Sequence record: OL631257.1
Source: Escherichia phage ECCR664
Length of the DNA: 64,000 bases
Direction: 5' to 3' (one strand)
The notes beneath the pieces were generated by a model that was given only the letters and a program-made list of their open reading frames with translations, made no database searches and was not told where the DNA came from. The position numbers and the translations under genes are program-made. Position 1 is the first letter of the stretch. Each line of letters opens with the position of its first letter. This document shows, in pieces, positions 17,501-35,124 of this stretch.

Positions 17501-17957
17501 CTAGATTTTAATCACTGCTTTAGAAGCTTTTCCTGGTAGTCGTTTACTGTTAATAATAGCCATTCTGCATTGAAGAGTCTTCATTTTGAATGCTGGATTT
17601 TCGCGACAGACTGTAAGTCCTAACCAAAGATTTCCGTCAGTTATTTCTAAACGGCCTGGGCGATATTCGACACCTTCGACAAAATCTTCATCAACATCTG
17701 GACGTGCCGGCATTGATAAAAATTCTGCAACTTCTTTAACATGATTTTTACTTTATGAAATAATTCAAAACGTAATTCTCATCTATTTCTCTCTGGATGG
17801 CACGATCTAAGAGATGTTGAGAATACTTGATATGAAAGCCTGGTAGTCCAAGAGACTTTGCAGCATCTTTTATACCGGCATTTATTTTGCGGAACTCCGT
17901 TTCAAAGATTCGACGGAGTTTATTACGGCGGATAAAAACGTCAGAATTGATAGTCAT
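17501..17957 (-). CDS. regB: endoribonuclease RegB, frameshifted
   Basis: ORFs 17748..17957 ('MTINSDVFIRRNKLRR...HLLDRAIQREIDE') and 17501..17713 ('...GVEYRPGRLEITDGNLW...CRMAIINSKRLPGKASKAVIK') match T4 RegB. Confidence 0.85.
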
Positions 17958-17986
17958 TTTTGATTTCTCCTCTAGTTGACAGGTCT

Positions 17987-18015
17987 ATAGTAACACATCT
18001 AGAGGAGAAGTAAAC
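17987..18015 (-). promoter_or_regulatory. T4-type early promoter
   Basis: Minus strand GTTTAC, 17 nt, TACTAT upstream of regB. Confidence 0.5.
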
Positions 18016-18019
18016 TACT

Positions 18020-18235
18020 TTATTGATAAAATGGAGTTAAAGCCCAAGATTCTTTAGATACCATATTGGCGAAATGCCTCATCTCTTCGATTTGGCGACG
18101 ACGCTGGTCAGCATAGTCTTCTTCACCTTCTTCCTTACAATCTTCAAGGTCTTCTTCAAGATACTTTAAGTATTCACTACAAATTTTGTTGACCTTTTCT
18201 TGAAAGTCCAATAACCCGGTAATAGTAGAAGCCAT
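18020..18235 (-). CDS. hypothetical protein (71 aa, acidic)
   Basis: ORF. Confidence 0.4.
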   Translation of the reverse strand: MASTITGLLDFQEKVNKICSEYLKYLEEDLEDCKEEGEEDYADQRRRQIEEMRHFANMVSKESWALTPFYQ

Positions 18236-18501
18236 TAGTATTTTTCCTCAGGTCGAAATACTGCACGACATGCCCACATACTGGCTTCTTTTAGATGTTG
18301 CTTAGCATACTTAAGAGCCTGCACTGCATCCATATCTTCTTTGGTTTGTTGCTCTGATTCATTTTCTTTCAAGATATATGCTTCTTCAATCAGAGCATCA
18401 AACATCAATCCAAGACGGACTTCGGCGTCTTTAATAGCGTTCACTTTACTGATTTTATCATCGGTATGCGGCTTGTAGCCTTTGATGTCTTCAATCGACA
18501 T
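18235..18501 (-). CDS. hypothetical protein (about 88 aa; start at 'MSIEDIKG')
   Basis: ORF 18235..18669, probable internal start overlapping the upstream stop. Confidence 0.4.
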   Translation of the reverse strand: MSIEDIKGYKPHTDDKISKVNAIKDAEVRLGLMFDALIEEAYILKENESEQQTKEDMDAVQALKYAKQHLKEASMWACRAVFRPEEKY

Positions 18502-18715: not shown

Positions 18716-19077
18716 TATAAACTCTCAGTAAAGGTACGAGCGATAACGTCGCGCTGCTGTTCCGGAGTCAGAGAGTTAAAGCGAACTGCATAACCGGATA
18801 CACGAATGGTCAGCTGTGGATATTTTTCCGGATGCTTAACTGCATCTTCCAGAGTTTCACGACGCAGAACGTTAACGTTCAGGTGCTGACCACCTTCAAT
18901 TTTAACTTTAGGTTGATGTTCAATTTCAATTTCACGAGCATTCAAACCGTAGAAAATTTCTGGGTCTACAATAGCGTCTTCTTTAAAAGTCTTAGAGACA
19001 ATAATCCGGGCTTGAGTACCGTCTTCAAAATAAATAGTGCCTTTATGTTCACCTTCAAGAATTTGATATGCTTTCAT
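18715..19077 (-). CDS. grcA: autonomous glycyl radical cofactor GrcA/YfiD-like protein
   Basis: C-terminus '[55 protein letters not shown]' carries the glycyl-radical motif RVSGY and closely resembles E. coli GrcA. Confidence 0.85.
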
Positions 19078-20197: not shown

Positions 20198-20500
20198 TTA
20201 TTTACCTTTAATTACTTTAGCTGCTTCGATAGCCGCTTGCTGAAGGTCATCCATAGACATACCGAATTTAGAAGCAAAGTTATCAATTTTCTTTTCAACA
20301 GCATTCAAAGGCTTGGCCTGTTTACCTTCATTAGCGCCAGGAAGAGCGAGAATACGCTCTTTGTCAATATAAAGGCTTACAAGTTTCTTACGGTCTTTAT
20401 CGGACAAATCGTGAAATGAATGGGCCTTTTTATTTATAGCGGCTTCTAATTTACCTGCACTCACTCGCGCTTCAGTAATAAATTCTTGATATGTTTTCAT
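20198..20500 (-). CDS. ipII: internal protein II (capsid-packaged, N-terminal capsid targeting sequence)
   Basis: 'MKTYQEFITEARV...' N-terminal targeting sequence; 100 aa; matches T4 IPII. Confidence 0.85.
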   Translation of the reverse strand: MKTYQEFITEARVSAGKLEAAINKKAHSFHDLSDKDRKKLVSLYIDKERILALPGANEGKQAKPLNAVEKKIDNFASKFGMSMDDLQQAAIEAAKVIKGK

Positions 20501-21062: not shown

Positions 21063-21344
21063 CTATTTTTCTGAAGCGCCTGAAATATATTTTTCAAGAC
21101 GTTGTTTCATCAGCGAGCCGTTCTTAGCGATTTCTTCCGGTTTATCACACATACGCAACAAGGCTTCAAGCTTAACGATATCACTGGTGCGCTCAAATTT
21201 GCGAGTATCTATCTTACTAGCAAGTTCAGAAATACGTGCTAATAGACTTTCAGCTTCAACCAAAGCTGCACCTAGCTTAGTTGCAAATGTGTCAGTAGCT
21301 TCGTTAAGAATAGATTCTGATAAAAATTCACTATATGTTTTCAT
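21063..21344 (-). CDS. internal-protein-like protein with capsid targeting sequence (IPIII-like)
   Basis: Starts '[10 protein letters not shown]'; start overlaps the stop of e (ATGA). Confidence 0.55.
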
Positions 21345-24906: not shown

Positions 24907-25320
24907 TTAAAAGAATGGATTATTTTTCTTGAAACGATGGGACATCTTAATTGCAAGACACATCTCAGGAGTTGCCCAGTAAAACCCGTTCAAACGGTCT
25001 TTAGTCAAATTTTTCTTGGCATATTTTAAAAGGTCATAAGAAGACGTGAAATCTTCAGGAGTGAGTTCACCGACTAATTCACGGACATTAGTGATTGCCG
25101 GAACAATATATGCTTCAAAATGAGTTTCGCGTCCATTATGGAAGCATTTGAAAACTTGGACATCAGGGTTATCTTGGTGGACATATACACCCATCATTTG
25201 ATTTTTGAATGCATTCCAAGAACCTTGGTCTGCAATAAAGTCCCAGTCACTATTTTTGATAGCGTTAGAATCAATAAGTCCGTGATAGTGAAGTGCACGA
25301 GAACCAATAACTAACATCAT
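24907..25320 (-). CDS. hypothetical protein (137 aa) with weak NTase-like N-terminus 'VIGSRALHYHG...SDWDF'
   Basis: ORF; the motif match is weak. Confidence 0.4.
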   Translation of the reverse strand: MMLVIGSRALHYHGLIDSNAIKNSDWDFIADQGSWNAFKNQMMGVYVHQDNPDVQVFKCFHNGRETHFEAYIVPAITNVRELVGELTPEDFTSSYDLLKYAKKNLTKDRLNGFYWATPEMCLAIKMSHRFKKNNPFF

Positions 25321-25343
25321 AATATTTTCCTCGGATTAATTAA

Positions 25344-25605
25344 CTTAAATTTCGCGACATGCGATATTATATTCATCCCAGAGGTCGTCATGTGAAGCCT
25401 CTACCAATGGAACGATTGTACCGTTTATGTCTTCATTATAAGGACAAATTGTACAGTGCGCATCTTCGAATCGGATGCCTTTGTGTTCAGATTTTTATAA
25501 CGCATATCGAATATCTTTGCAAACTTTTCACGAGTAATGGTTTTAGCAACCACTTTAGTTCCGATACTTTCGTAATAAATCATTGTGGACTCCATTTAAT
25601 TTGAT
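25344..25605 (-). CDS. small Cys-containing hypothetical protein, frameshifted
   Basis: 'MESTMIYYESIGTKVVAKTITREKFAKIFDMRYKNLNTK' then '...FEDAHCTICPYNEDINGTIVPLVEASHDDLWDEYNIACREI' in another frame. Confidence 0.35.
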
Positions 25606-25611
25606 AGGACT

Positions 25612-25641
25612 ACTATAACATAGCCCTATCTTGTTGTAAAC
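25612..25641 (-). promoter_or_regulatory. T4-type early promoter
   Basis: Minus strand GTTTAC, 17-18 nt, TATAGT. Confidence 0.5.
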
Positions 25642-25645
25642 TGTT

Positions 25646-25843
25646 TTAGCAAGAATAACTAGATGATACCCAGCCTTGAACAGTAATACTATTATTTGAT
25701 ACCGAGATTGCGTTCTGGAGATTCAGACCTGCGTTATCTTCAATCCATAATGTAACTTCTTCGCGTTCTTCTGTTGCAATTTGGAACAGGTTTTCCAGGG
25801 CAGCTACTGCCGTACGTACAGCACAATCTAATTCACGAGACAT
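25646..25843 (-). CDS. small protein, tandem paralog family member 3 (C-terminal 'GWVSSSYSC')
   Basis: 65 aa; shares its C-terminal motif with 25853..26124 and 26134..26439. Confidence 0.5.
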   Translation of the reverse strand: MSRELDCAVRTAVAALENLFQIATEEREEVTLWIEDNAGLNLQNAISVSNNSITVQGWVSSSYSC

Positions 25844-25852
25844 ATGATTTCC

Positions 25853-26124
25853 TTAGCAAGTGTGAGAAGATGCAACCCAACCACCAGTTTCGAGGCTCAG
25901 GTTATAGTCGTATTGGTAAACGTCGGCCCATTCAGCATAGCCGTTTTTGTACAACGTTCAAGATCGGCTTTAAGATGTCCTGGCGAATGATAGGTTCCAC
26001 CCATACCATAAGCTGGATACAAGTCGAATGTTGTGTTTTGTTTATCAGCAATTTCTTTGGCAGCCTCAATAGCTGCATAGATTTTTGCTACGGCTTCAGC
26101 CAGTTCGGTTTGTTCTTTAGACAT
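25853..26124 (-). CDS. small protein, tandem paralog family member 2 (C-terminal 'GGWVASSHTC'), frameshifted
   Basis: ORF 25897..26124 'MSKEQTELAEAVAKIYAAIEAAKEIADKQ...GGTYHSPG' plus a shifted C-terminus. Confidence 0.45.
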
Positions 26125-26133
26125 AATGATTCC

Positions 26134-26439
26134 TTAGCACAACGCAGAAGACGAAACCCAAGCACCTTCAGTAATAACGTAACCATTACCTTCACGCTTA
26201 ACATCGCCACCATTATTTTCAATTTCATTTTTCATCCATTGGGATACGATTTCACCCTTAGGATAATAAGTACGACCGCTACCATAATCACCTACAGAAA
26301 ATGATACGGCATATTGGTCTGCGATCTTTGTTGCTTCTTCTTCGATACGTTCAGCTTGATTCAGAAGTTTATAAATTGCATCTGAAGCGGATTTGGCATC
26401 ATTAAACTCTGGTACTTTAATTTCAATAATCTTACTCAT
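26134..26439 (-). CDS. small protein, tandem paralog family member 1 (C-terminal 'GAWVSSSALC')
   Basis: 101 aa 'MSKIIEIKVPEFNDAKSASDAIYKLLNQAERIEEEATKIADQ...GRTYYPKG'. Confidence 0.5.
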   Translation of the reverse strand: MSKIIEIKVPEFNDAKSASDAIYKLLNQAERIEEEATKIADQYAVSFSVGDYGSGRTYYPKGEIVSQWMKNEIENNGGDVKREGNGYVITEGAWVSSSALC

Positions 26440-26795
26440 TTTCTACATTCCTTAATAAAGTTTTCTATTGTTTCATTTTCACGTCTAGCTAGGAGTTCAT
26501 TATAACTAATCATTTGAGAAGCGTAAACCTTTTTATTTTTCTTGTTATGGTTTATAAAATCGTAGTAAAAATAGACTACAGTACAAAAGGATGCGATGGA
26601 TGCAAAGGCTTGGGTGTACCGTAAGTCCTGCCATTGGTCTGTGAATCCACCGGTGTTCCCTATAAATCCTAACACAACCCCGTCAATAAGAAATCCAACT
26701 AATCCAAAGGCAAATCCCATGCCAATACTCATAATAAAAATTAGAATGTTCTCACCAAGAGACGGCCATACGGTTAAGAGTTGAGGCTTTTGCAT
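26436..26795 (-). CDS. membrane protein
   Basis: 'ILIFIMSIGMGFAFGLVGFLIDGVVLGFIG' hydrophobic segment. Confidence 0.5.
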   Translation of the reverse strand: MQKPQLLTVWPSLGENILIFIMSIGMGFAFGLVGFLIDGVVLGFIGNTGGFTDQWQDLRYTQAFASIASFCTVVYFYYDFINHNKKNKKVYASQMISYNELLARRENETIENFIKECRK

Positions 26796-27199
26796 CTTAT
26801 TTCCTTAACGAATTCCATAGCTTCTTCATATTCATACTTTTTAACAGCTTCGTCATACTGAGCTTGGGCTTTTGCGCACTGAACTTTCCACTCACGAACT
26901 CGAGCTCTGTGATGACGTCCTTGGTACCAATATCCCACCCAGTTAATAGGCATTAATAAAAACGGTACAATAAGTGGTGCGACGAACATTAATGAAAATG
27001 CTGCATCAGACGATATAACTTCACTAGAATCTAAAACAGCTCCTATAATCATAAAGATTAAAAATGCTAAAGCCAAAATAGGGCCAAATAGTACTTCGTT
27101 TGGGATTAATTTACGTTTGTATTCGTATGCCCAGGGCTTACTCGGCATGTATAGGGTTGGCTTTGACATATTCTCTACATTCCATAATAAATTGCTCAA
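26774..27199 (-). CDS. membrane protein (2 TM)
   Basis: 'LFGPILALAFLIFMIIGAVL' and 'FSLMFVAPLIVPFLLMPINWVGYW'. Confidence 0.5.
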   Translation of the reverse strand: MSNLLWNVENMSKPTLYMPSKPWAYEYKRKLIPNEVLFGPILALAFLIFMIIGAVLDSSEVISSDAAFSLMFVAPLIVPFLLMPINWVGYWYQGRHHRARVREWKVQCAKAQAQYDEAVKKYEYEEAMEFVKEIRCKSLNS

Positions 27200-27322
27200 G
27201 GATTAAATTGTTAGTGAAATTAGGACTAACAACCATAGTTTCATAAAGCGCATCAATAGCACTTAAAGCATCAACTCTTTTAAGCAAAGGCTTGCCTTCA
27301 TACATAGTTTCAGAATCGACGA

Positions 27323-27760
27323 TTAACGTAAAGTAATATTTTTATTATCGACTAGAACTTCTGTGTCAATATAAAACATATTAGACCTCAGAAGCTTATC
27401 TCTAAAACCGTAATAATCTTCTGAACGTTCACTGATATATTCCCATTCAGTGTTTAAACAACAAACAGACCACGTAGGAGCAACGAAATCAGTGAATCTA
27501 ATATCATGGTCTGCAACTAGTTTAGCAATAGCTCCGATATCATGAATCATAATACCTGGGGCTAATAAAGATTTTCTGCTATGGCTAGCCGTTTTCTCGG
27601 TGGTCTCATAAGAAGACGACCAGTACCATTTACGTCCAGTTGCAACATATCGTAATGAATCAACTAAAGACGTAGGTGGATTTACCTTATCTCGGAACTC
27701 TTCGAACATTGAGTCAATATCATTATTTTGGTTTCGCATGTTAACTCCTTTATTATCCAA
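27323..27760 (-). CDS. hypothetical protein (145 aa)
   Basis: ORF. Confidence 0.45.
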   Translation of the reverse strand: MDNKGVNMRNQNNDIDSMFEEFRDKVNPPTSLVDSLRYVATGRKWYWSSSYETTEKTASHSRKSLLAPGIMIHDIGAIAKLVADHDIRFTDFVAPTWSVCCLNTEWEYISERSEDYYGFRDKLLRSNMFYIDTEVLVDNKNITLR

Positions 27761-27788
27761 AAGGAGGACCGGAGTCCTCCGTATTATT

Positions 27789-28382
27789 TTATTTCAAAGA
27801 GTTAATATATTCTTGTACATCGGCAGAAGTGGTTTCGACACCGGCTGGAGTACCATTGAACGTTTCAACACGAGTCAGAGTGTCTTCGATATCAACCTTA
27901 GTCAGTGCAGCAATTTCAATCACATCATCAGCCGTAGAGATACCAAGGGCATTGGCTGCTCGAGTTTCACGAATGTATTCGAGTTTGATTGCCAGATTCT
28001 GACGAGCATCATCAAGTTCAACCACCTTACGAGCAATTTCAATTCGCATAGCGGCATACCCGTCAGCTTTTGTATTAAGTTGTTCGGCAGTTCGACGATA
28101 CAAAAGACCAAGCTTAGCATGCATGGTAACATCTTGTCCTTCAGCCAGGAGCTTACGAATTTCACGTTCCTTAGAAGCGGCTTGCTTATTCTTTTCAATA
28201 ACAAGTTCGCGAATACGTTTTTCTTCATTAATAGATTTAACAGAAGCCGTTTTTAGTTCTTTGATTTGGGTAATCAACTTATCTGCAGCTGCGTTATACT
28301 GTTCTTCGACAGTCAGATTTTTAGCCATAGCAGTACCCAGTTTAGTGCGGATGAATTCAACAAGTTTCTTCAGTGTGTTCAT
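27789..28382 (-). CDS. PspA/IM30-like coiled-coil protein (putative membrane-stress protein)
   Basis: About 197 aa, strongly helical and charged, with PspA-like size and heptad organisation; assignment is by pattern only. Confidence 0.4.
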
Positions 28383-28423
28383 ATTATTACCTTTCAATTG
28401 GTGGTTTATTATCCAACGAGAGT

Positions 28424-28452
28424 ATTATACTCTGCTCTAAAGAGTTTGTACA
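28424..28452 (-). promoter_or_regulatory. T4-type early promoter
   Basis: Minus strand GTGTAC, 17 nt, TATAAT upstream of the PspA-like gene. Confidence 0.5.
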
Positions 28453-28453
28453 C

Positions 28454-28701
28454 TTATTTGTACGAATTAATAATCTCTTCCATTTTATCCAGAACATGGA
28501 TATCGATTATACGAGGAAGTGCCGAAAGATTAGAACCGTCGAAAGATTTAAGGTCTTCCAAAATAATATTTTCAATGGCCTTTAAAGCTTCCGCAGATTC
28601 TGACGCAGAATTAAATTCAGGAATTTCTCCAAAAGACGTAAGAATGAACCAAAGTATTCTGCGGCGATTTCTTTAGCTTGTTCGATATCAGACTTAAACA
28701 T
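28454..28701 (-). CDS. hypothetical protein (about 82 aa, frameshifted)
   Basis: 'MFKSDIEQAKEIAAEYFGSF' then a shifted frame '...IENIILEDLKSFDGSNLSALPRIIDIHVLDKMEEIINSYK'. Confidence 0.35.
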
Positions 28702-28730
28702 TTTGTTTTCCTCATTTGTTGGTGGAGTAA

Positions 28731-28985
28731 TCATATCACCATCCTTGGCGTTTGTACATTATTTTTAATCAAGTTGACATAAAATTCTGCATCTTCAGGG
28801 TGCATGCCTTCACAGTATTCTTCAACCATGAACTTCTTAACAGCTTCATAAGGACCACTCAGATTAAGCTCAGTTGTCCAGAACTTGGAATCTTGGACCG
28901 AATCGATACGAACGTCAGGGTGACGGTTGCGAATAACTTCTTCGGTGTATTCATAATCAACGACATCAATACTAACTGTAGCCAT
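28731..28985 (-). CDS. hypothetical protein (84 aa)
   Basis: ORF. Confidence 0.45.
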   Translation of the reverse strand: MATVSIDVVDYEYTEEVIRNRHPDVRIDSVQDSKFWTTELNLSGPYEAVKKFMVEEYCEGMHPEDAEFYVNLIKNNVQTPRMVI

Positions 28986-29031
28986 TTTGTTTTCCTCTTG
29001 ATTTGATGTGATTACTATAACATAAACTTAC

Positions 29032-29196
29032 TTAGATGTAAATTATTTCAACGTCACCTTTAGCGGCTTTATAACCTTCAGCCCAAGATACAACAGAGTT
29101 TTTATCTGAGGATTCAAATTCAGGCATTGGACTTTCACCAATATTCACACAGTATGTTTCTTCATTTTCATCGAACCAAATAATTAAAGTAGTCAT
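29032..29196 (-). CDS. small hypothetical protein (about 54 aa)
   Basis: 'MTTLIIWFDENEETYCVNIGESPMPEFESSDKNSVVSWAEGYKAAKGDVEIIYI'. Confidence 0.3.
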   Translation of the reverse strand: MTTLIIWFDENEETYCVNIGESPMPEFESSDKNSVVSWAEGYKAAKGDVEIIYI

Positions 29197-29277
29197 TTTG
29201 TTTACTCCTTTGTAGTTGATAAGTCTATAGTATCACCATCCTTGGTGCTTGTACATCATTATTTTAATTTTTCCAAC

Positions 29278-29505
29278 TTAACAACTTGTAGTATCCTTCA
29301 TTCGTACGTGGTTTATCCCAAAAATACTAATATATGATTCGCTGTCAATAGAAGTCGCCGGGTTTTTCTCTACCGTAAGACCTTCACTTTCCAGCCATTC
29401 AATAGTATTTGCGCATAAATCAGAAGAACACCTCATCGGGAACCGGCAAGATTTTTCACCTTTAGCTGCAGTGTTATACATCTTTTCTAAAATACGCTTT
29501 TGCAC
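29278..29505 (-). CDS. hypothetical protein (75 aa)
   Basis: ORF. Confidence 0.4.
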   Translation of the reverse strand: MQKRILEKMYNTAAKGEKSCRFPMRCSSDLCANTIEWLESEGLTVEKNPATSIDSESYISIFGINHVRMKDTTSC

Positions 29506-29595
29506 GTTTTTAAAAATAGTTTCAGCAGATTCTTCAGATTTTTATTCAGTTCAGTGTAAAGACTCATACTATTCTCCTCATGTTTTAATAGGACT

Positions 29596-29624
29596 ATAGT
29601 AACACATCCAGGGAAGAAGTAAAC
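29596..29624 (-). promoter_or_regulatory. T4-type early promoter
   Basis: Minus strand GTTTAC, 17 nt, TACTAT. Confidence 0.5.
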
Positions 29625-29647
29625 AACTTTTTCAGTAAGTTATAGAC

Positions 29648-29672
29648 CCCTAAAGGGGCCCGAAGGTCCCCA
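29648..29672 (-). terminator. hairpin terminator (UUCG tetraloop), family A copy 2
   Basis: 'ggggcc cgaa ggtcccc' downstream of 29677..30295. Confidence 0.45.
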
Positions 29673-29676
29673 TTCT

Positions 29677-30295
29677 TTACTTACGAGTTTTTGCATACTG
29701 AGCAGCGTCAGCAGCCAAACGACCTGCCTGACGAAGTTTTTCTTTAATCGCATCGTGAAGTGGTTGAGTATACTTCAAACCTTCGATAGTCAAATAAAGA
29801 CGATAAAGGTCTGGGGTATCAAGGTTGTTGATATGTTGGCCATTACGAAGACTGTTGAATTCACGAACGAGTGAAGATGTATCGGATTCAATATCACGAA
29901 CAAGCGAAGATAGTTGTTTATATTTTTTTCCAGGCTAGAAGTATCAAACTTAAGAGCAGGAGCTTTAGGAGTTGCTTTTACTTCCGGCTTAGGCTCAGGT
30001 TTTGCTTTAGGGGCCGCAGGTTTAGGAACGGTAGGAGCAGGTTTTACTTTAGGCGAACCCGATTTAGCAGAAACACCACCACTAACAATATCTTTGAATG
30101 CTTTAGAAGCTCTGTAATATTCTTTTGGGTGGAAGTGTCGATACCGTACATGGCTTGAACGTTTTTGAAAAACTCTGTACTAGTTTTTGTACCAGAAATA
30201 GCATCGTAAGCAGCTTGCCATTTCTCTTTTGTCATACGTACACCGGCTTCGGTGATTACTTCCGTTTCGGCTAAAAATTCATTAAAAGTATACAT
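29677..30295 (-). CDS. internal-protein-like protein with capsid targeting sequence and Pro/Ala/Lys-rich linker, frameshifted
   Basis: Starts 'MYTFNEFLAETEV' (compare IPI/IPII 'MKTY(K/Q)EFI..E'); a 'PKPAAPKAKPEPKPEVK' segment follows; ends '...AAQYAKTRK'. Minus-strand TATAAATA at 30331..30338. Confidence 0.45.
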
Positions 30296-30330
30296 TGATG
30301 GTCCTTAGAAAGTGGGTTTATTGTTTACTA

Positions 30331-30338
30331 TATTTATA
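30331..30338 (-). promoter_or_regulatory. T4-type late promoter (TATAAATA, minus strand)
   Basis: Plus strand 'tatttata', 36 nt upstream of the 30295 start. Confidence 0.4.
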
Positions 30339-30339
30339 C

Positions 30340-30366
30340 AAAAAGCCCCAACCTTTCGGAAGGGGC
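30340..30366 (-). terminator. rho-independent terminator, family B copy 2
   Basis: Hairpin identical to 14376..14405 ('gcccc aacctttcggaa ggggc') plus a U5 run; lies 3' of the tRNA/stable-RNA cluster. Confidence 0.55.
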
Positions 30367-30409
30367 TATATACCTTGTCGGGGTTTCCACCTACTAAGGC
30401 AAGTGTTTG

Positions 30410-30566
30410 TACGAAACGCCGGGATTCGAACCCGGTTATTAAGCAGTTGACGCTACTCAATATTTTTAAAGGCCATATCTCGACCATATCCGAACGTTCC
30501 GTCAAAAACGCTACTCGGCTTACGGCAAAGATATTTCCTCGAATCGATAATTCTGTGCGCCGTTTC
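30410..30566 (-). ncRNA. tRNA-like small stable RNA (candidate T4 species 1/2-type RNA) or degenerate tRNA
   Basis: Canonical T-arm 'CCGGGTTCGAATCCCGG' and acceptor-like 3' end, but about 155 nt long with no clean cloverleaf. Confidence 0.3.
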
Positions 30567-30669
30567 TGCTGTGATGTAAGGGGATATTAACGAATCATAA
30601 AGATTTATTAAGACCAGTCCTTACTCAGGGAACATCAGTCCGACGACTTGCCGGTAGCGACCCGGCTTC

Positions 30670-31014
30670 TTATTTTGACATATCATCAATTTGTTCTCTA
30701 CGTCTACGCCATAGATTAATTACTTCATCAACACATTCGGCGTTTGATATATGACGGCAATAATATAATGATTCGCGTTTCTGGAACCGATGTTGCAATG
30801 GGATTTCGTTTAAAAGGTCTTTACGGTCAAAGTATTCAAAACTAGTTAACCCAGAACGGTTTTTAAGGAACTTCCAATGACCAAATTCATTTTGAACATA
30901 GACGTAATCGGCATGCTGATACAGCGAATTAATTAACCTATCGGAAATAACTGTTTCACGTTCGTTAAAATAAAACGTTAAATCATGAACTACCAGATAA
31001 ACATTGCCTTTCAT
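30670..31014 (-). CDS. hypothetical protein (about 114 aa)
   Basis: ORF 30670..31062 with probable start at 'MKGNVYLVVHDL'. Confidence 0.4.
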   Translation of the reverse strand: MKGNVYLVVHDLTFYFNERETVISDRLINSLYQHADYVYVQNEFGHWKFLKNRSGLTSFEYFDRKDLLNEIPLQHRFQKRESLYYCRHISNAECVDEVINLWRRRREQIDDMSK

Positions 31015-31032
31015 ATTTTCCTCACTTAAAGT

Positions 31033-31110
<78 letters not shown>

Positions 31111-31116
31111 ATATAT

Positions 31117-31189
31117 GACCCAGACCAGATTCGAACTGGTAACCTTTCCCTTATGAGGGGACTGCTGCTAACCATTGAGCTACAGGGCC
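31117..31189 (-). tRNA. tRNA-Ile (anticodon CAU; Met-type anticodon as in T4 tRNA-Ile)
   Basis: Cloverleaf with acceptor GGCCCTG, D-arm GCTCAATGGTTAG, anticodon loop CTCATAA, T-arm CCAGTTCGAATCTGG. Confidence 0.8.
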
Positions 31190-31267
31190 TAAATAACTTT
31201 CTATTATGAAAGGCACTTTAGAGCACCTTTGGTAATAGAGGATATGAATTAATAATAACACATAATT

Positions 31268-31783
31268 CTTAAAGCAAATCAACCATTTTAACGGTCGGCA
31301 AAACGATTTCTTCTTCAATATAAGCAAATTCGACACGTTCAACTACACGCAAGAAATCGTAATCGTAGTATTCAGAAGCGTAGCCAAGAATATCAATAAG
31401 ACCTTGAGATATCTCATCGCCTTTCACAAAGAACAGGTCGAATACACGTGATTCATCTTCTTCAGATTTATTACCGAGGTCGACTTCGATACCAAAGACC
31501 TTTTAATGAATTCCGGATAAAGCTGGTCTGAGAACAGTCCTTCAACCAAGTATTCATAGATTAAAAGCGAGCAATCACTGAATGGTGTATTACCACAATA
31601 ACGTTCGGCTTTGGTGCTAGAATGACGGCTCTTAAATTTCTTCAAGAGATATTTAAACTGTTGGAGCTCATGCTCTTCCACTTCAAACAATGTTTTGGTT
31701 TTATAGTTGTCACCATCATTTTCATAGGTAGTGACATCAATTACGTAACCCTTAGGAATTGTACTGCCTAAACAAATATTCAT
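31268..31783 (-). CDS. hypothetical protein (frameshift about 31500)
   Basis: ORF 31424..31783 plus a shifted continuation ending '...LPTVKMVDLL'. Confidence 0.4.
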
Positions 31784-31787
31784 TTAC

Positions 31788-32078
31788 TCACCGTACCATA
31801 TTAATGTAATTATATTCAATGCAACGTAATTTCAAAGGATTCTTGAAAATATCATATTCAAGAGGACCTTTTTCTGTTTCAATAAAGAAATCAAAGTTCA
31901 CACTATTAAATTTGCGGTCTTCCCAAAGTAATTTAACCTGTGAAGATGAACGGTCGATGTAAACCTTTTCAACTTCAAAGTGGGTCAAAATACCATAGTA
32001 ATCGACTAGTGCTTTAGCTGCAGCTCGGTCGCTTTCATATCCATTCTCAACGGATTTTACCTTAGCATAAAGAATCAT
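31788..32078 (-). CDS. hypothetical protein (96 aa)
   Basis: ORF. Confidence 0.45.
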   Translation of the reverse strand: MILYAKVKSVENGYESDRAAAKALVDYYGILTHFEVEKVYIDRSSSQVKLLWEDRKFNSVNFDFFIETEKGPLEYDIFKNPLKLRCIEYNYINMVR

Positions 32079-32437
32079 GAATGTTCCACCATTTCAAAGG
32101 TATGAGCATCAACAATATGATACCAGTCAAAATTTTCTTCTGCGTTTTTATAAATTTCGCGAAGAGCCTCAACAGTTTTTCCTGTAGCAACAAGGTCGTC
32201 AATACCACCAAGAGGATAACAGTCATAACCAGCAAACAGAAGGAAATTAATAGTTTCTGTAGGTTCTGGATGCAGAACTCCGTTATCGTCTACCACTTCA
32301 AAGAAAGTGTAAGAAGGAGTACAAGTTTTAATCCAGGCCCATGCTTGAGCTGCTGAATCAAACGGATTACGGAATAAACGACAATCCGGGTCTTTAGAAG
32401 GATTTGCTTCAAAATCAGCATATACATGATATTTCAT
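32075..32437 (-). CDS. hypothetical protein (about 120 aa)
   Basis: ORF 32075..32455, start likely at 'MKYHVYADF'. Confidence 0.45.
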   Translation of the reverse strand: MKYHVYADFEANPSKDPDCRLFRNPFDSAAQAWAWIKTCTPSYTFFEVVDDNGVLHPEPTETINFLLFAGYDCYPLGGIDDLVATGKTVEALREIYKNAEENFDWYHIVDAHTFEMVEHS

Positions 32438-32438
32438 T

Positions 32439-32645
32439 TTACTCACCTTTTGCAATTTTATCCATAACGATAGCGATTAAGCCGATTAGAAATGCTACTA
32501 CCAATGAGATAGAATTTTCTGTTGTTGTCAGTAGTCCACAAATGAATCCTACAAACATCGAAAAACTAAAAGCCATTGAAGCAATTACTACAGCAACATT
32601 ACGAATCAGTTCAGCGCGTTTCATTTTATTTCTCCATTTACTCAT
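32439..32645 (-). CDS. small membrane protein (68 aa)
   Basis: 'LIRNVAVVIASMAFSFSMFVGFICGLL' hydrophobic segment. Confidence 0.45.
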   Translation of the reverse strand: MSKWRNKMKRAELIRNVAVVIASMAFSFSMFVGFICGLLTTTENSISLVVAFLIGLIAIVMDKIAKGE

Positions 32646-32661
32646 TTGATTTGATAGGACT

Positions 32662-32691
32662 ACTATAACATAGTCCTATCAGCATGTAAAC
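32662..32691 (-). promoter_or_regulatory. T4-type early promoter
   Basis: Minus strand GTTTAC, 18 nt, TATAGT in the 'gataggactactataacatagtcctatc' element. Confidence 0.5.
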
Positions 32692-32694
32692 TAC

Positions 32695-32982
32695 TTATAG
32701 AAGAGTTTTTGCAATAATTTTAAGCTGAGCTACAGAAATATGCTTAGCTTTAAACAGTGCAGTCTCTTCAGCCGGAGAGATAACAATAGTAGCGCCATCT
32801 TTCTTAGCAGACCATCCATCCCCTAAGTAAACAGTACCTTTTACTTCTTCACCATCAACCAGACTAATCATTGGTTTACCCTCACGTCCTTTATTTGTTT
32901 TAATAACTTCAGAAGTAAGGGATGCTTCGGTCAGAGTAGAAACGTTAGCAACAGGTGATATAAATTCTTTATAGGTTTTCAT
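32695..32982 (-). CDS. ipI: internal protein I (capsid-packaged; IPI* is an anti-GmrSD restriction factor in T4)
   Basis: 'MKTYKEFISPVANVSTLTEASLT...GREGKPMISLVDGEEVKGTVYLGDGWSAKKDGATIVISPAEETALFKAKHI' closely matches T4 IPI. Confidence 0.9.
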   Translation of the reverse strand: MKTYKEFISPVANVSTLTEASLTSEVIKTNKGREGKPMISLVDGEEVKGTVYLGDGWSAKKDGATIVISPAEETALFKAKHISVAQLKIIAKTLL

Positions 32983-33016
32983 TTTATTTCCTTGAGGCTG
33001 TTTATTTGATAGGATG

Positions 33017-33046
33017 ATAGTAACACACCATCATCCTTATGTAAAC
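33017..33046 (-). promoter_or_regulatory. T4-type early promoter
   Basis: Minus strand GTTTAC, 18 nt, TACTAT upstream of ipI. Confidence 0.5.
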
Positions 33047-33059
33047 TGTTTTGTGAAAA

Positions 33060-33745
<686 letters not shown>

Positions 33746-33749
33746 TTTA

Positions 33750-34481
33750 TTACCTTAAGATTGTTTCAATTTTAGAATAAAGCTCTTCTAAAGAGCCGTC
33801 GTTTGTAATAACTAAATCGCCTTCTTCAATAGGCAACCCAGCTTCTGTAATATGTTTATCGGTGGATTCCGTACCAGAGCGAACCACATGAATAACTGTA
33901 GCACCCATCGCTCTAGCGGTTTCCATTTCATGGACTTGACGTGTATCGGTTACGACATAGTAATCGAAATCACTTCCAATATAATCCATATAGTTTAATG
34001 CAAAAGTTTAACCCAATACATACGGTCAAATAAATTAACGACAACATCCGTACCGAGGGCTTGCATAAGACGGCGGATTGACCATGTGTCGTTGATATTA
34101 TTTATAGCTTCACGCAGGGCTTCATATAGTTTAATATCTAGATACGAATATCCACCTTCTAACGATGATAATACTTTAACATTATTAATTGGTAAATATT
34201 GACTTTGCAAATAAATTAGCGCTTCTTCCAATAATTCAATAACATCCAACTTATTGAGATTTAATGGTGTTTCACGGTCGTATCCAATGCCTTCAAAGTA
34301 TTCGTATTTCAACTCTGTGAATACATCAGGATTTTCAGCATGTCTACGTCCCCAGGCTATTGCTAGAGCGTCTTTAATCGGATATGCCAATTGGTATTTT
34401 ACGGATTTAAAGTTTGAATTGATGTAATCAGCGGTGGTGTCTTTACCACTACGTTTGATGCCGCTTAAAGATTAGCTCCAT
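33750..34481 (-). CDS. 1: deoxynucleoside monophosphate kinase gp1, frameshifted (at least 2 indels)
   Basis: 'MELIF' start then a shifted P-loop region; ORFs 33995..34390 and 33750..33989 match T4 gp1 ('...DTRQVHEMETARAMGATVIHVVR...'). Confidence 0.9.
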
Positions 34482-34534
34482 AAGTTTTCCTCATATAATT
34501 TATGAGTGATTATAACATATGGAGCTAGAAGCGA

Positions 34535-35124
34535 TTAACGCAAGGAAGGGTGTCTAGAAATGGATTTAGATTCGACGGCTTGACGTGGTTGTTGAGATAC
34601 AATGACTTCGCCATCTTTTTCTATCGTCATATACGCGTAGTGAATAGTTGCTACGCACGTAACGGCAGGGTCAGAGTCTTCAGTGTAACTAAATTCAATT
34701 TCACTCAAATCAGAAATCCATGGTTTATAGAAATTTGCTGTCAAAACTACTTCTGTCTTATTGTTGTTTAAAATGTGCAAAGTAACAAACTCAGGACCAT
34801 CGGCATGGGCTGTATTATGACCTGTTATATAGTTATTAGTGCTGAGCATCCATTTATACATGTTCATCCAGGACGTCATGTCTTCATCAACTATAAATCG
34901 TACAATAAAGGGTCATATTCAAATGTAGTGCCTGCGCGCATTGCACGTCCTAACCCCATTGTGCCTGTCACAGTTTCAACAACAGGAATTCTCACACCTG
35001 GCAGTGGTGCCGTTTGGGCATTGAGCACAAAACCTGAAGTTCGTGCACTATCCGGGATATCCACAACAAAGTTTGTTATATTTGTTTGGTTAAAAATCTG
35101 TCTCGCTGGACGAGTCATAAGCAC
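34535..35124 (-). CDS. 3: tail completion/sheath stabilizer gp3, frameshifted
   Basis: ORFs 34891..35124 and 34535..34879 at the T4 gene 3 position, upstream of 1 and downstream of 2. Confidence 0.75.

Follow-up and report, generated by a model that had tools for sequence, protein, structure and literature searches.

A candidate internal head protein with a capsid-targeting-like N-terminus encoded beside the tRNA and rnaC genes of Escherichia phage ECCR664

Does the broken open reading frame beside the tRNA genes of Escherichia phage ECCR664 encode an additional internal head protein, and what might such a protein do? The question arises within a stretch of 64,000 nucleotides of this phage (sequence record OL631257.1), which is hereafter called the window. 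On its minus strand, an open reading frame begins with an ATG at 30295, changes frame twice (near 30126 and near 29929) and ends with a TAA at 29679-29677, and its protein starts MYTFNEFLAETE / MYTFNEFLAETEVITEAG / MYTFNEFLAETEVITEAGVRMTKEKW. The region is 97-98% identical in DNA to Mosigvirus genomes of the RB69/JS09 group (LF82-1, JS09 and HX01). Locally, the genes run in the order gene 1, 57A, 57B, ipI, tRNA.4-tRNA.2, tRNA-Met, tRNA-Arg, an ORF150c homologue, the candidate gene and an ORF146c homologue, continuing to e.6, which places the candidate at neither of the two classical ip loci.

As given, the sequence carries two frameshifts within the candidate gene, which would fit a real pseudogene, in which both shifts are genuine and the gene is decaying and yields no functional product. 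Alignment with JS09 assigned each shift to the loss of a single nucleotide, as follows.

29677..30295, minus strand: the candidate gene from its ATG through its stop codon; 619 nt as given, 206 aa after repair
About 30126: first single-base loss against JS09, within a Cn/An run, shifting frame 0 to frame 2
About 29929: second single-base loss against JS09, an A8 run read as A7, causing the second frameshift

Restoring one base at each of these sites yields a protein of 206 aa, and this repair, which the preliminary description of the DNA had proposed as a check, leaves the CTS-like start in place. The same type of loss is found beyond the candidate gene. Relative to JS09, single bases are missing at 18 places in approximately 9 kb (25094-34597), mostly in A/T homopolymer runs, which corresponds to approximately 2 per kb, and two of these losses (34005 and 34469) lie in the stretch aligned to gene 1. 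Gene 1 encodes the dNMP kinase and is essential. Because one-nucleotide homopolymer losses recur across the approximately 9 kb aligned to JS09, including two within the stretch aligned to this essential gene, both frameshifts in the candidate gene are, on the alignment, sequencing-type errors that carry no biology. Intact orthologues exist in JS09 (JS09_035 / YP_009037358, 208 aa) and in ESCO47 (206 aa, 98.1% identity), and the candidate is 95% identical to copies of the JS09/HX01 type and 98% identical to that of ESCO47. Compared with JS09, its linker lacks 6 nt without loss of frame, and, to judge from its length of 206 aa, the ESCO47 copy may have this shorter linker too. A pseudogene could also be argued from Shigella phage TB004 and phage CEV1, which likewise match in two pieces, and from the RB69 reference, in which the family member is divided between ORF149c and ORF148c. 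However, outside the two shifts the gene matches intact copies at 98% identity and shows no further lesions, and both shifts are of the type that recurs in the surrounding DNA. We therefore rejected a true pseudogene on the homopolymer error pattern and regard it as highly improbable. The gene had been described as frameshifted at 29677..30295, and an open reading frame with two frame changes is indeed present there, but the JS09 alignment and the intact orthologues indicate that the shifts are artefactual. Many genes within 25094-34597 will appear frameshifted for technical reasons, and apparent frameshifts in the window are not to be taken as biology.

The start of the repaired protein resembles the capsid targeting sequence (CTS) of T4, which reads MKTYQEFIAE (PMC8442874). 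In T4, ten CTS residues suffice for the packaging of foreign proteins (PMC9026906, PMC8442874). Mutagenesis by Mullaney and Black attributed targeting mainly to residues 4 and 7 and processing to residues 8 and 10 (reviewed in PMC9026906), and the head protease gp21 cuts after L/I-X-E (PMC9026906). The corresponding elements of the candidate are listed below.

30266..30295, minus strand: CTS-like propeptide MYTFNEFLAE, codons 1-10, with a first L-x-E site (L8-A-E10) followed by T
30248..30265, minus strand: TEVITE, codons 11-16, with a second L/I/V-x-E site (I14-T-E16) followed by A; an alternative or redundant cleavage site

In register, MYTFNEFLAE and MKTYQEFIAE share six of ten residues, and at the critical positions the candidate has F4 (aromatic), F7, L8 and E10, which match T4 in residue class. 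The candidate departs from the MKTY start at position 2, which is Y rather than K, and at position 4, which is F rather than Y; the alleles of JS98 and RB69 do have Y at position 4. We scored the first ten residues of 798 Met-initiated open reading frames of at least 30 aa, drawn from all six frames of the window, against MKTYQEFIAE. The highest identity counts belonged to IPII (9), IPI (7), the gene at the ipIII position (7) and the candidate (6), while the remainder comprised one frame with a count of 5 and 793 frames with counts of at most 4. The candidate is thus fourth among 798 frames, which upholds the original observation that its start closely mimics the T4 CTS, and by this scoring the resemblance exceeds chance. 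An open reading frame of 120 aa at 19077 on the minus strand has a start with 5/10 identities to the CTS and no E-F core, which is probably a chance match.

The window contains three other CTS-bearing genes, which had been reported as IPI (32695..32982), IPII (20198..20500) and an IPIII-like gene (21063..21344). All three are present at those positions, two of them starting MKTYKEFISP and MKTYQEFITE, and each of the three belongs to a PHROG with an internal virion or head protein annotation (4363, 7857 and 3499). The gene at 21063-21344, on the minus strand, is IPIII-like by position but not by family, as it belongs to phrog_3499 ("internal head protein") rather than to phrog_5341, which is that of T4 IPIII. 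The propeptide of this ipIII-position gene carries two L-x-E sites in succession (LSE before S, and LNE before A), as in the family of the candidate. Across the four CTS genes of the window, neither the 5' DNA nor the upstream regions are homologous to one another, which suggests selection on the peptide rather than a recently copied cassette. A recent DNA cassette common to the ip genes was accordingly rejected, as these genes have unrelated upstream regions and differ in their codons.

We also asked how widely the tag is kept among relatives of the candidate, which is a full-length member of phrog_2280, a family of "unknown function" (E = 8.5e-58, residues 1-201 of 206). Searches with tblastn placed the family in 188 phage records, comprising Mosigvirus, JS98-type coliphages, Serratia phages, Yersinia/Tegunavirus, Enterobacter/Karamvirus/Kanagawavirus, Klebsiella/Raoultella Jiaodavirus and others, and in every tblastn match listed the annotation is "hypothetical protein" or absent. 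Members of phrog_2280 include JS98 gp135, JS09_035, RB69 ORF149c/148c, fHe-Yen9-01 gp154 and VMC04_131. A profile search against 1.84 billion cluster representatives recovered only 14 clusters, which suggests that the family is small and restricted to phages. We tabulated the N-termini of 20 family members from metagenomes and at least seven genera, among them Mosigvirus, the JS98 group, Tegunavirus, Karamvirus, Kanagawavirus and Jiaodavirus. All 20 begin with M-x(0-2)-[FY]-x-[EDQ]-[FI], followed by at least one L/I/V-x-E within 19 residues, and 14 of the 20 have such sites in tandem. The residue after the cleavage-site glutamate is mostly A or S and occasionally T, G, E or V, and the glutamate aligned with E16 of the candidate forms an invariant column of the family alignment. 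The tag persists where the N-domain has been replaced (P0027 and P0029) and where the C-domain has been replaced (P0024, P0026, W14-4, CIP9 and VMC04_131), and the JS98-type N-terminus, MKTYNEFLNESILSEAG, nearly equals that of the ipIII-position internal protein of the window. One metagenomic member, P0021 (278 aa), has its called start 60 residues upstream of a CTS-type methionine (MINFNEFLAESEE); since every other member begins at the tag, this start is probably mis-called. The candidate had been described as an extra, divergent internal protein, and the retention of the tag in 20 of 20 family members agrees with that description, although the protein is not unique, given that phrog_2280 occurs in 188 records.

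Within Mosigvirus, the locus carries two allelic types, a JS09 type and an RB69 ORF149c type, which both belong to phrog_2280. RB69 ORF149c starts MKTYAEFLTE and matches phrog_2280 with E = 6e-37. In the RB69 record (NC_004928, 7429-7991, minus strand), ORF149c overlaps ORF148c, and the two appear to be a single phrog_2280 gene that a frameshift in the reference sequence has divided; together they represent a diverged second allele of this locus, closest to members of the P0023 type. No phrog_2280 member is present in T4, where e.8 and e.7 occupy the equivalent place and lack the tag. The polymorphism of the locus and the independent swaps of N- and C-domains would fit a gene engaged in an arms race.

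The position of the family gene is constant, directly downstream of the tRNA/rnaC cluster, with a terminator hairpin and a late-promoter motif preceding it. Around the candidate, the predicted expression signals are as follows.

30340..30367, minus strand: predicted intrinsic terminator, a GC hairpin with U5; -16 kcal/mol, z = -4.4, with 0 of 200 shuffles as stable
30331..30338, minus strand: predicted T4-type late promoter TATAAATA, 35 nt from its end to the ATG
30302..30306, minus strand: Shine-Dalgarno sequence AAGGA, 6 nt upstream of the ATG
29643..29671, minus strand: GC-rich hairpin 3' of the stop codon, a putative terminator, weak in the window (z = -0.3) and blurred by indels

The late-promoter motif that the preliminary description had marked at 30331..30338 is thus present there. 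The TATAAATA motif is enriched approximately twofold in the window (16 occurrences against 8.0 +/- 2.7 expected), and by itself it is weak evidence; what counts in these comparisons is its conserved position. The exact motif occurs at the equivalent place in JS09, Yersinia phage fHe-Yen9-01, Enterobacter phage AS6 and Klebsiella phage W14-4, with near-matches there in Clarke_MM3 and CIP9, and a hairpin occupies the same place as 30340..30367 in other genera. At the hairpin beyond the stop codon, JS09 reads GGGGACTTCGGTCCCC followed by TTT. Upstream of the candidate, the non-coding DNA at 30339-30660 on the minus strand contains homologues of rnaD and rnaC (species 2 and 1) that are approximately 95% identical to those of T4, and the terminator at 30340..30367 would end this tRNA/rnaD/rnaC unit and insulate the predicted late gene. 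A suppressor tRNA called by ARAGORN at 30409-30502 (tRNA-Stop, anticodon tta) was rejected, as the call lies inside the rnaC homologue, has no support from the Rfam tRNA model and is not made in JS09. The succession of hairpin, TATAAATA, AAGGA and ATG suggests that the candidate is a free-standing late gene. Elsewhere in the window, TATAAATA also occurs inside the ipII coding sequence (20431-20438, minus strand, within 20198-20500), and a TATAAT-type -10 element is found instead within the 60 nt that precede ipII, which suggests that the promoter arrangement of other ip genes is unlike that of the candidate.

We examined the architecture of the protein in an AlphaFold2 model of an orthologue that is 98% identical to the candidate (P0001; 17-sequence alignment, mean pLDDT 71). 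The segments of this model, together with the linker as it lies in the DNA, are given below.

Residues 1-18: propeptide region, modelled with low confidence; residues 4-10 form a short helix
Residues 23-73: N-domain, three helices
Residues 74-112: Pro/Ala/Lys linker, disordered (pLDDT < 50), with no secondary structure through residue 121
Residues 122-206: C-domain, three helices
About 29953..30072, minus strand: Pro/Ala/Lys-rich linker SAKSGSPKVKPAPTVPKPAAPKAKPEPKPEVKATPKAPAL, residues ~76-115 (~40 aa), net charge approximately +7

The Pro/Ala/Lys-rich linker and helical C-terminal domain that had been anticipated from the translation are thus both found, the latter as predicted in the P0001 model. 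Removal of the propeptide is predicted to leave a mature form of 190-196 aa and 21.0-21.6 kDa with a pI of 9.7-9.8, and additional [LIV]-x-E motifs occur at positions 144-146 and 184-186. Searches with the candidate against Pfam, NCBIfam, PADLOC and the PDB, by sequence and by profile, returned nothing significant, and the mature domains matched no known inhibitor in sequence or fold.

How does this protein compare with the internal proteins already described? T-even phages encode many diverse proteins that share only a CTS, with at least ten Ips according to Repoila (1994) as relayed by PMC12373910 (see PMC3012670), and an NMR structure of IPI is described in the latter review (PMC3012670). 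In T4, each of Ip1, Ip2 and Ip3 blocks its own GmrSD type IV restriction enzyme, and these proteins shape host range (PMC12373910, PMC9391042). The candidate resembles T4-type internal proteins in having an N-terminal CTS like MKTYQEFIAE with a gp21 L/I-X-E site after it, a predicted late promoter, a small basic mature protein and the character of a non-essential, polymorphic accessory gene. Its mature product would be basic, as T4 internal proteins are, and about the size of IPIII. It differs from them in that a long Pro/Ala/Lys linker connects its two domains, it adjoins the rnaC/tRNA cluster rather than the ipI or ipII/ipIII loci, and T4 lacks the gene. In addition, Ip1, Ip2 and Ip3 belong to other PHROGs (4363, 7857, 3499 and 5341) than the candidate (2280), Ip1 and Ip2 being compared by PHROG only. 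With T4 IPIII, pairwise BLASTP aligned residues 1-26 only (E = 0.001), and hhalign with the phrog_2280 profile aligned only the N-terminal 23 columns, at a probability of 7.7%. Homology to T4 IPIII beyond the tag was rejected, since both alignments are confined to residues 1-26. To our knowledge, most Ips beyond these three have no known target. It is unlikely that the candidate is one of the already named Ip4-10, because the family is absent from the T4 reference and no Tequatrovirus is among the matches listed. The T4 prohead core proteins gp22, gp67, gp68 and Alt also share features with the candidate, namely targeting to the prohead interior and L/I-X-E sites; however, they are conserved (Alt aside), lack an MKTY-type tag and have other sequences, and no homology to the candidate was detected.

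Based on the CTS match, the conservation of the tag, the predicted late promoter and terminator, the basic product and the presence in the same phage of three tagged proteins with internal-protein PHROG annotations, we consider that the candidate is probably an internal head protein that is targeted to the prohead and processed there. By extension from T4 biology (PMC9026906, PMC8442874, PMC3012670), the tag would dock the precursor onto the scaffolding core during prohead assembly. The protease gp21 would then cut after E10, after E16 or after both, and the resulting basic protein of approximately 21-21.6 kDa and pI ~9.7 would stay with the packaged DNA and be ejected with it. The lysine-rich linker would, by analogy, hold the protein on DNA or keep it extended.

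For packaging itself, we looked for virion proteomes. Our literature search found none for a Mosigvirus or a JS98-type phage. A dataset was available for the Jiaodavirus ValerieMcCarty04, whose CsCl-purified virions were analysed by LC-MS/MS with a six-frame translation search (PMC13119998, Supplementary Data S2). The family member of this phage, VMC04_131 / WKM80661 (MKFKDFLTEEELFEAAPGRMTKSKW), is encoded directly downstream of the tRNA cluster. Among the rows covered from that supplement, WKM80661 has no peptide entry, with 0 of its 6 predicted tryptic peptides present, while the neighbours WKM80658, 80662 and 80663 have rows (PMC13119998). The same rows record 26 spectra for the IPII homologue WKM80648 and 66 for the ipIII-position internal protein WKM80649, which starts MKTYQEFLNES (PMC13119998). 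This absence is a real but limited negative, and it argues against abundant packaging of that homologue. The ipI-locus CTS protein of ValerieMcCarty04, WKM80674 / VMC04_161 (MKSYQEFLMETE), is represented in the supplement by one spurious row only (E = 3.5; PMC13119998), which suggests that not every CTS protein is seen in this dataset; its gene lies at 17897-18280 on the minus strand of OR271596. The negative for WKM80661 is weakened by this second miss and by the distance of the homologue from the candidate: the two are approximately 35% identical, their C-domains differ, and the tag of the homologue, MKFKDFLTE, is shorter by one residue.

The proteome result bears on two other explanations. 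The first is that the candidate is a late protein that stays in the cytoplasm, unpackaged, its CTS-like N-terminus being vestigial or used for something else. This explanation gains from the one negative proteome, as far as the supplement of PMC13119998 reports it, with virion evidence at hand for no member of the family, and from residues 2 and 4 of the window copy, which depart from canonical MKTY. However, a vestigial tag would be expected to decay, and here the tag is the most persistently retained part of the protein, kept together with its cleavage motif through approximately 65% divergence and through swaps of either domain. Moreover, the ten CTS residues that package foreign proteins in T4 lead one to expect that a late product with such an N-terminus would be found in proheads, irrespective of its role. 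We consider a cytoplasmic role quite unlikely.

The second explanation is that the candidate acts as an accessory of the prohead core, in head assembly or in DNA condensation, and is then degraded or expelled in the manner of gp22, gp67 and gp68, or is present in low copy, without any role against host defences. Degradation or low copy number would account for the undetected Jiaodavirus homologue, and the [LIV]-x-E motifs at 144-146 and 184-186 could permit internal cleavage. The Lys/Pro-rich linker and the pI of 9.7 suit binding to DNA or to the core, and T4 IPIII itself affects head morphogenesis (PMC9026906). In contrast, assembly factors are usually conserved core genes, whereas the candidate gene is absent from T4, and its allelic variation within Mosigvirus and the shuffling of its domains between phages form a pattern typical of accessory genes for host interaction. 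A purely structural role of this kind therefore appears unlikely to us.

If the candidate is indeed an injected internal protein, its mature form might act in the host on an early host defence, by analogy with T4 Ip1, Ip2 and Ip3 (PMC12373910, PMC9391042), and the two helical domains, swapped independently among phages, might serve as specificity modules. We put this anti-defence role forward tentatively, as a possibility that is, overall, rather less likely than not. A broader and more doubtful proposal is that the slot downstream of tRNA/rnaC constitutes a second, hitherto unrecognised polymorphic internal-protein locus of most non-T4 Tevenvirinae. Such a locus would supply modular two-domain injected effectors whose N- and C-modules are independently swapped and whose Lys/Pro tether rides on the DNA, and these effectors would counter host defences different from the targets of Ip1-3, such as enzymes directed at the arabinosyl-hmC DNA that Mosigviruses carry.

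Taken together, these comparisons suggest that phrog_2280, which is called an internal protein in none of the records seen, has the sequence-level features of one, and that the family occupies a third, distinct locus with an unusual architecture of two domains and a linker. The annotation "hypothetical protein" can be replaced with "putative internal head protein (CTS-bearing)". Internal proteins are the first responders of a phage. If the proposed identity is true, a candidate determinant of host range would be added to approximately 190 sequenced phages of the therapeutic type, which infect E. coli, Shigella, Klebsiella, Enterobacter, Yersinia and Serratia, there would likewise be a candidate for phages whose hmC modifications are non-glucosyl, and the family would offer a natural two-domain CTS cargo as an example for T4-style engineering of protein delivery.
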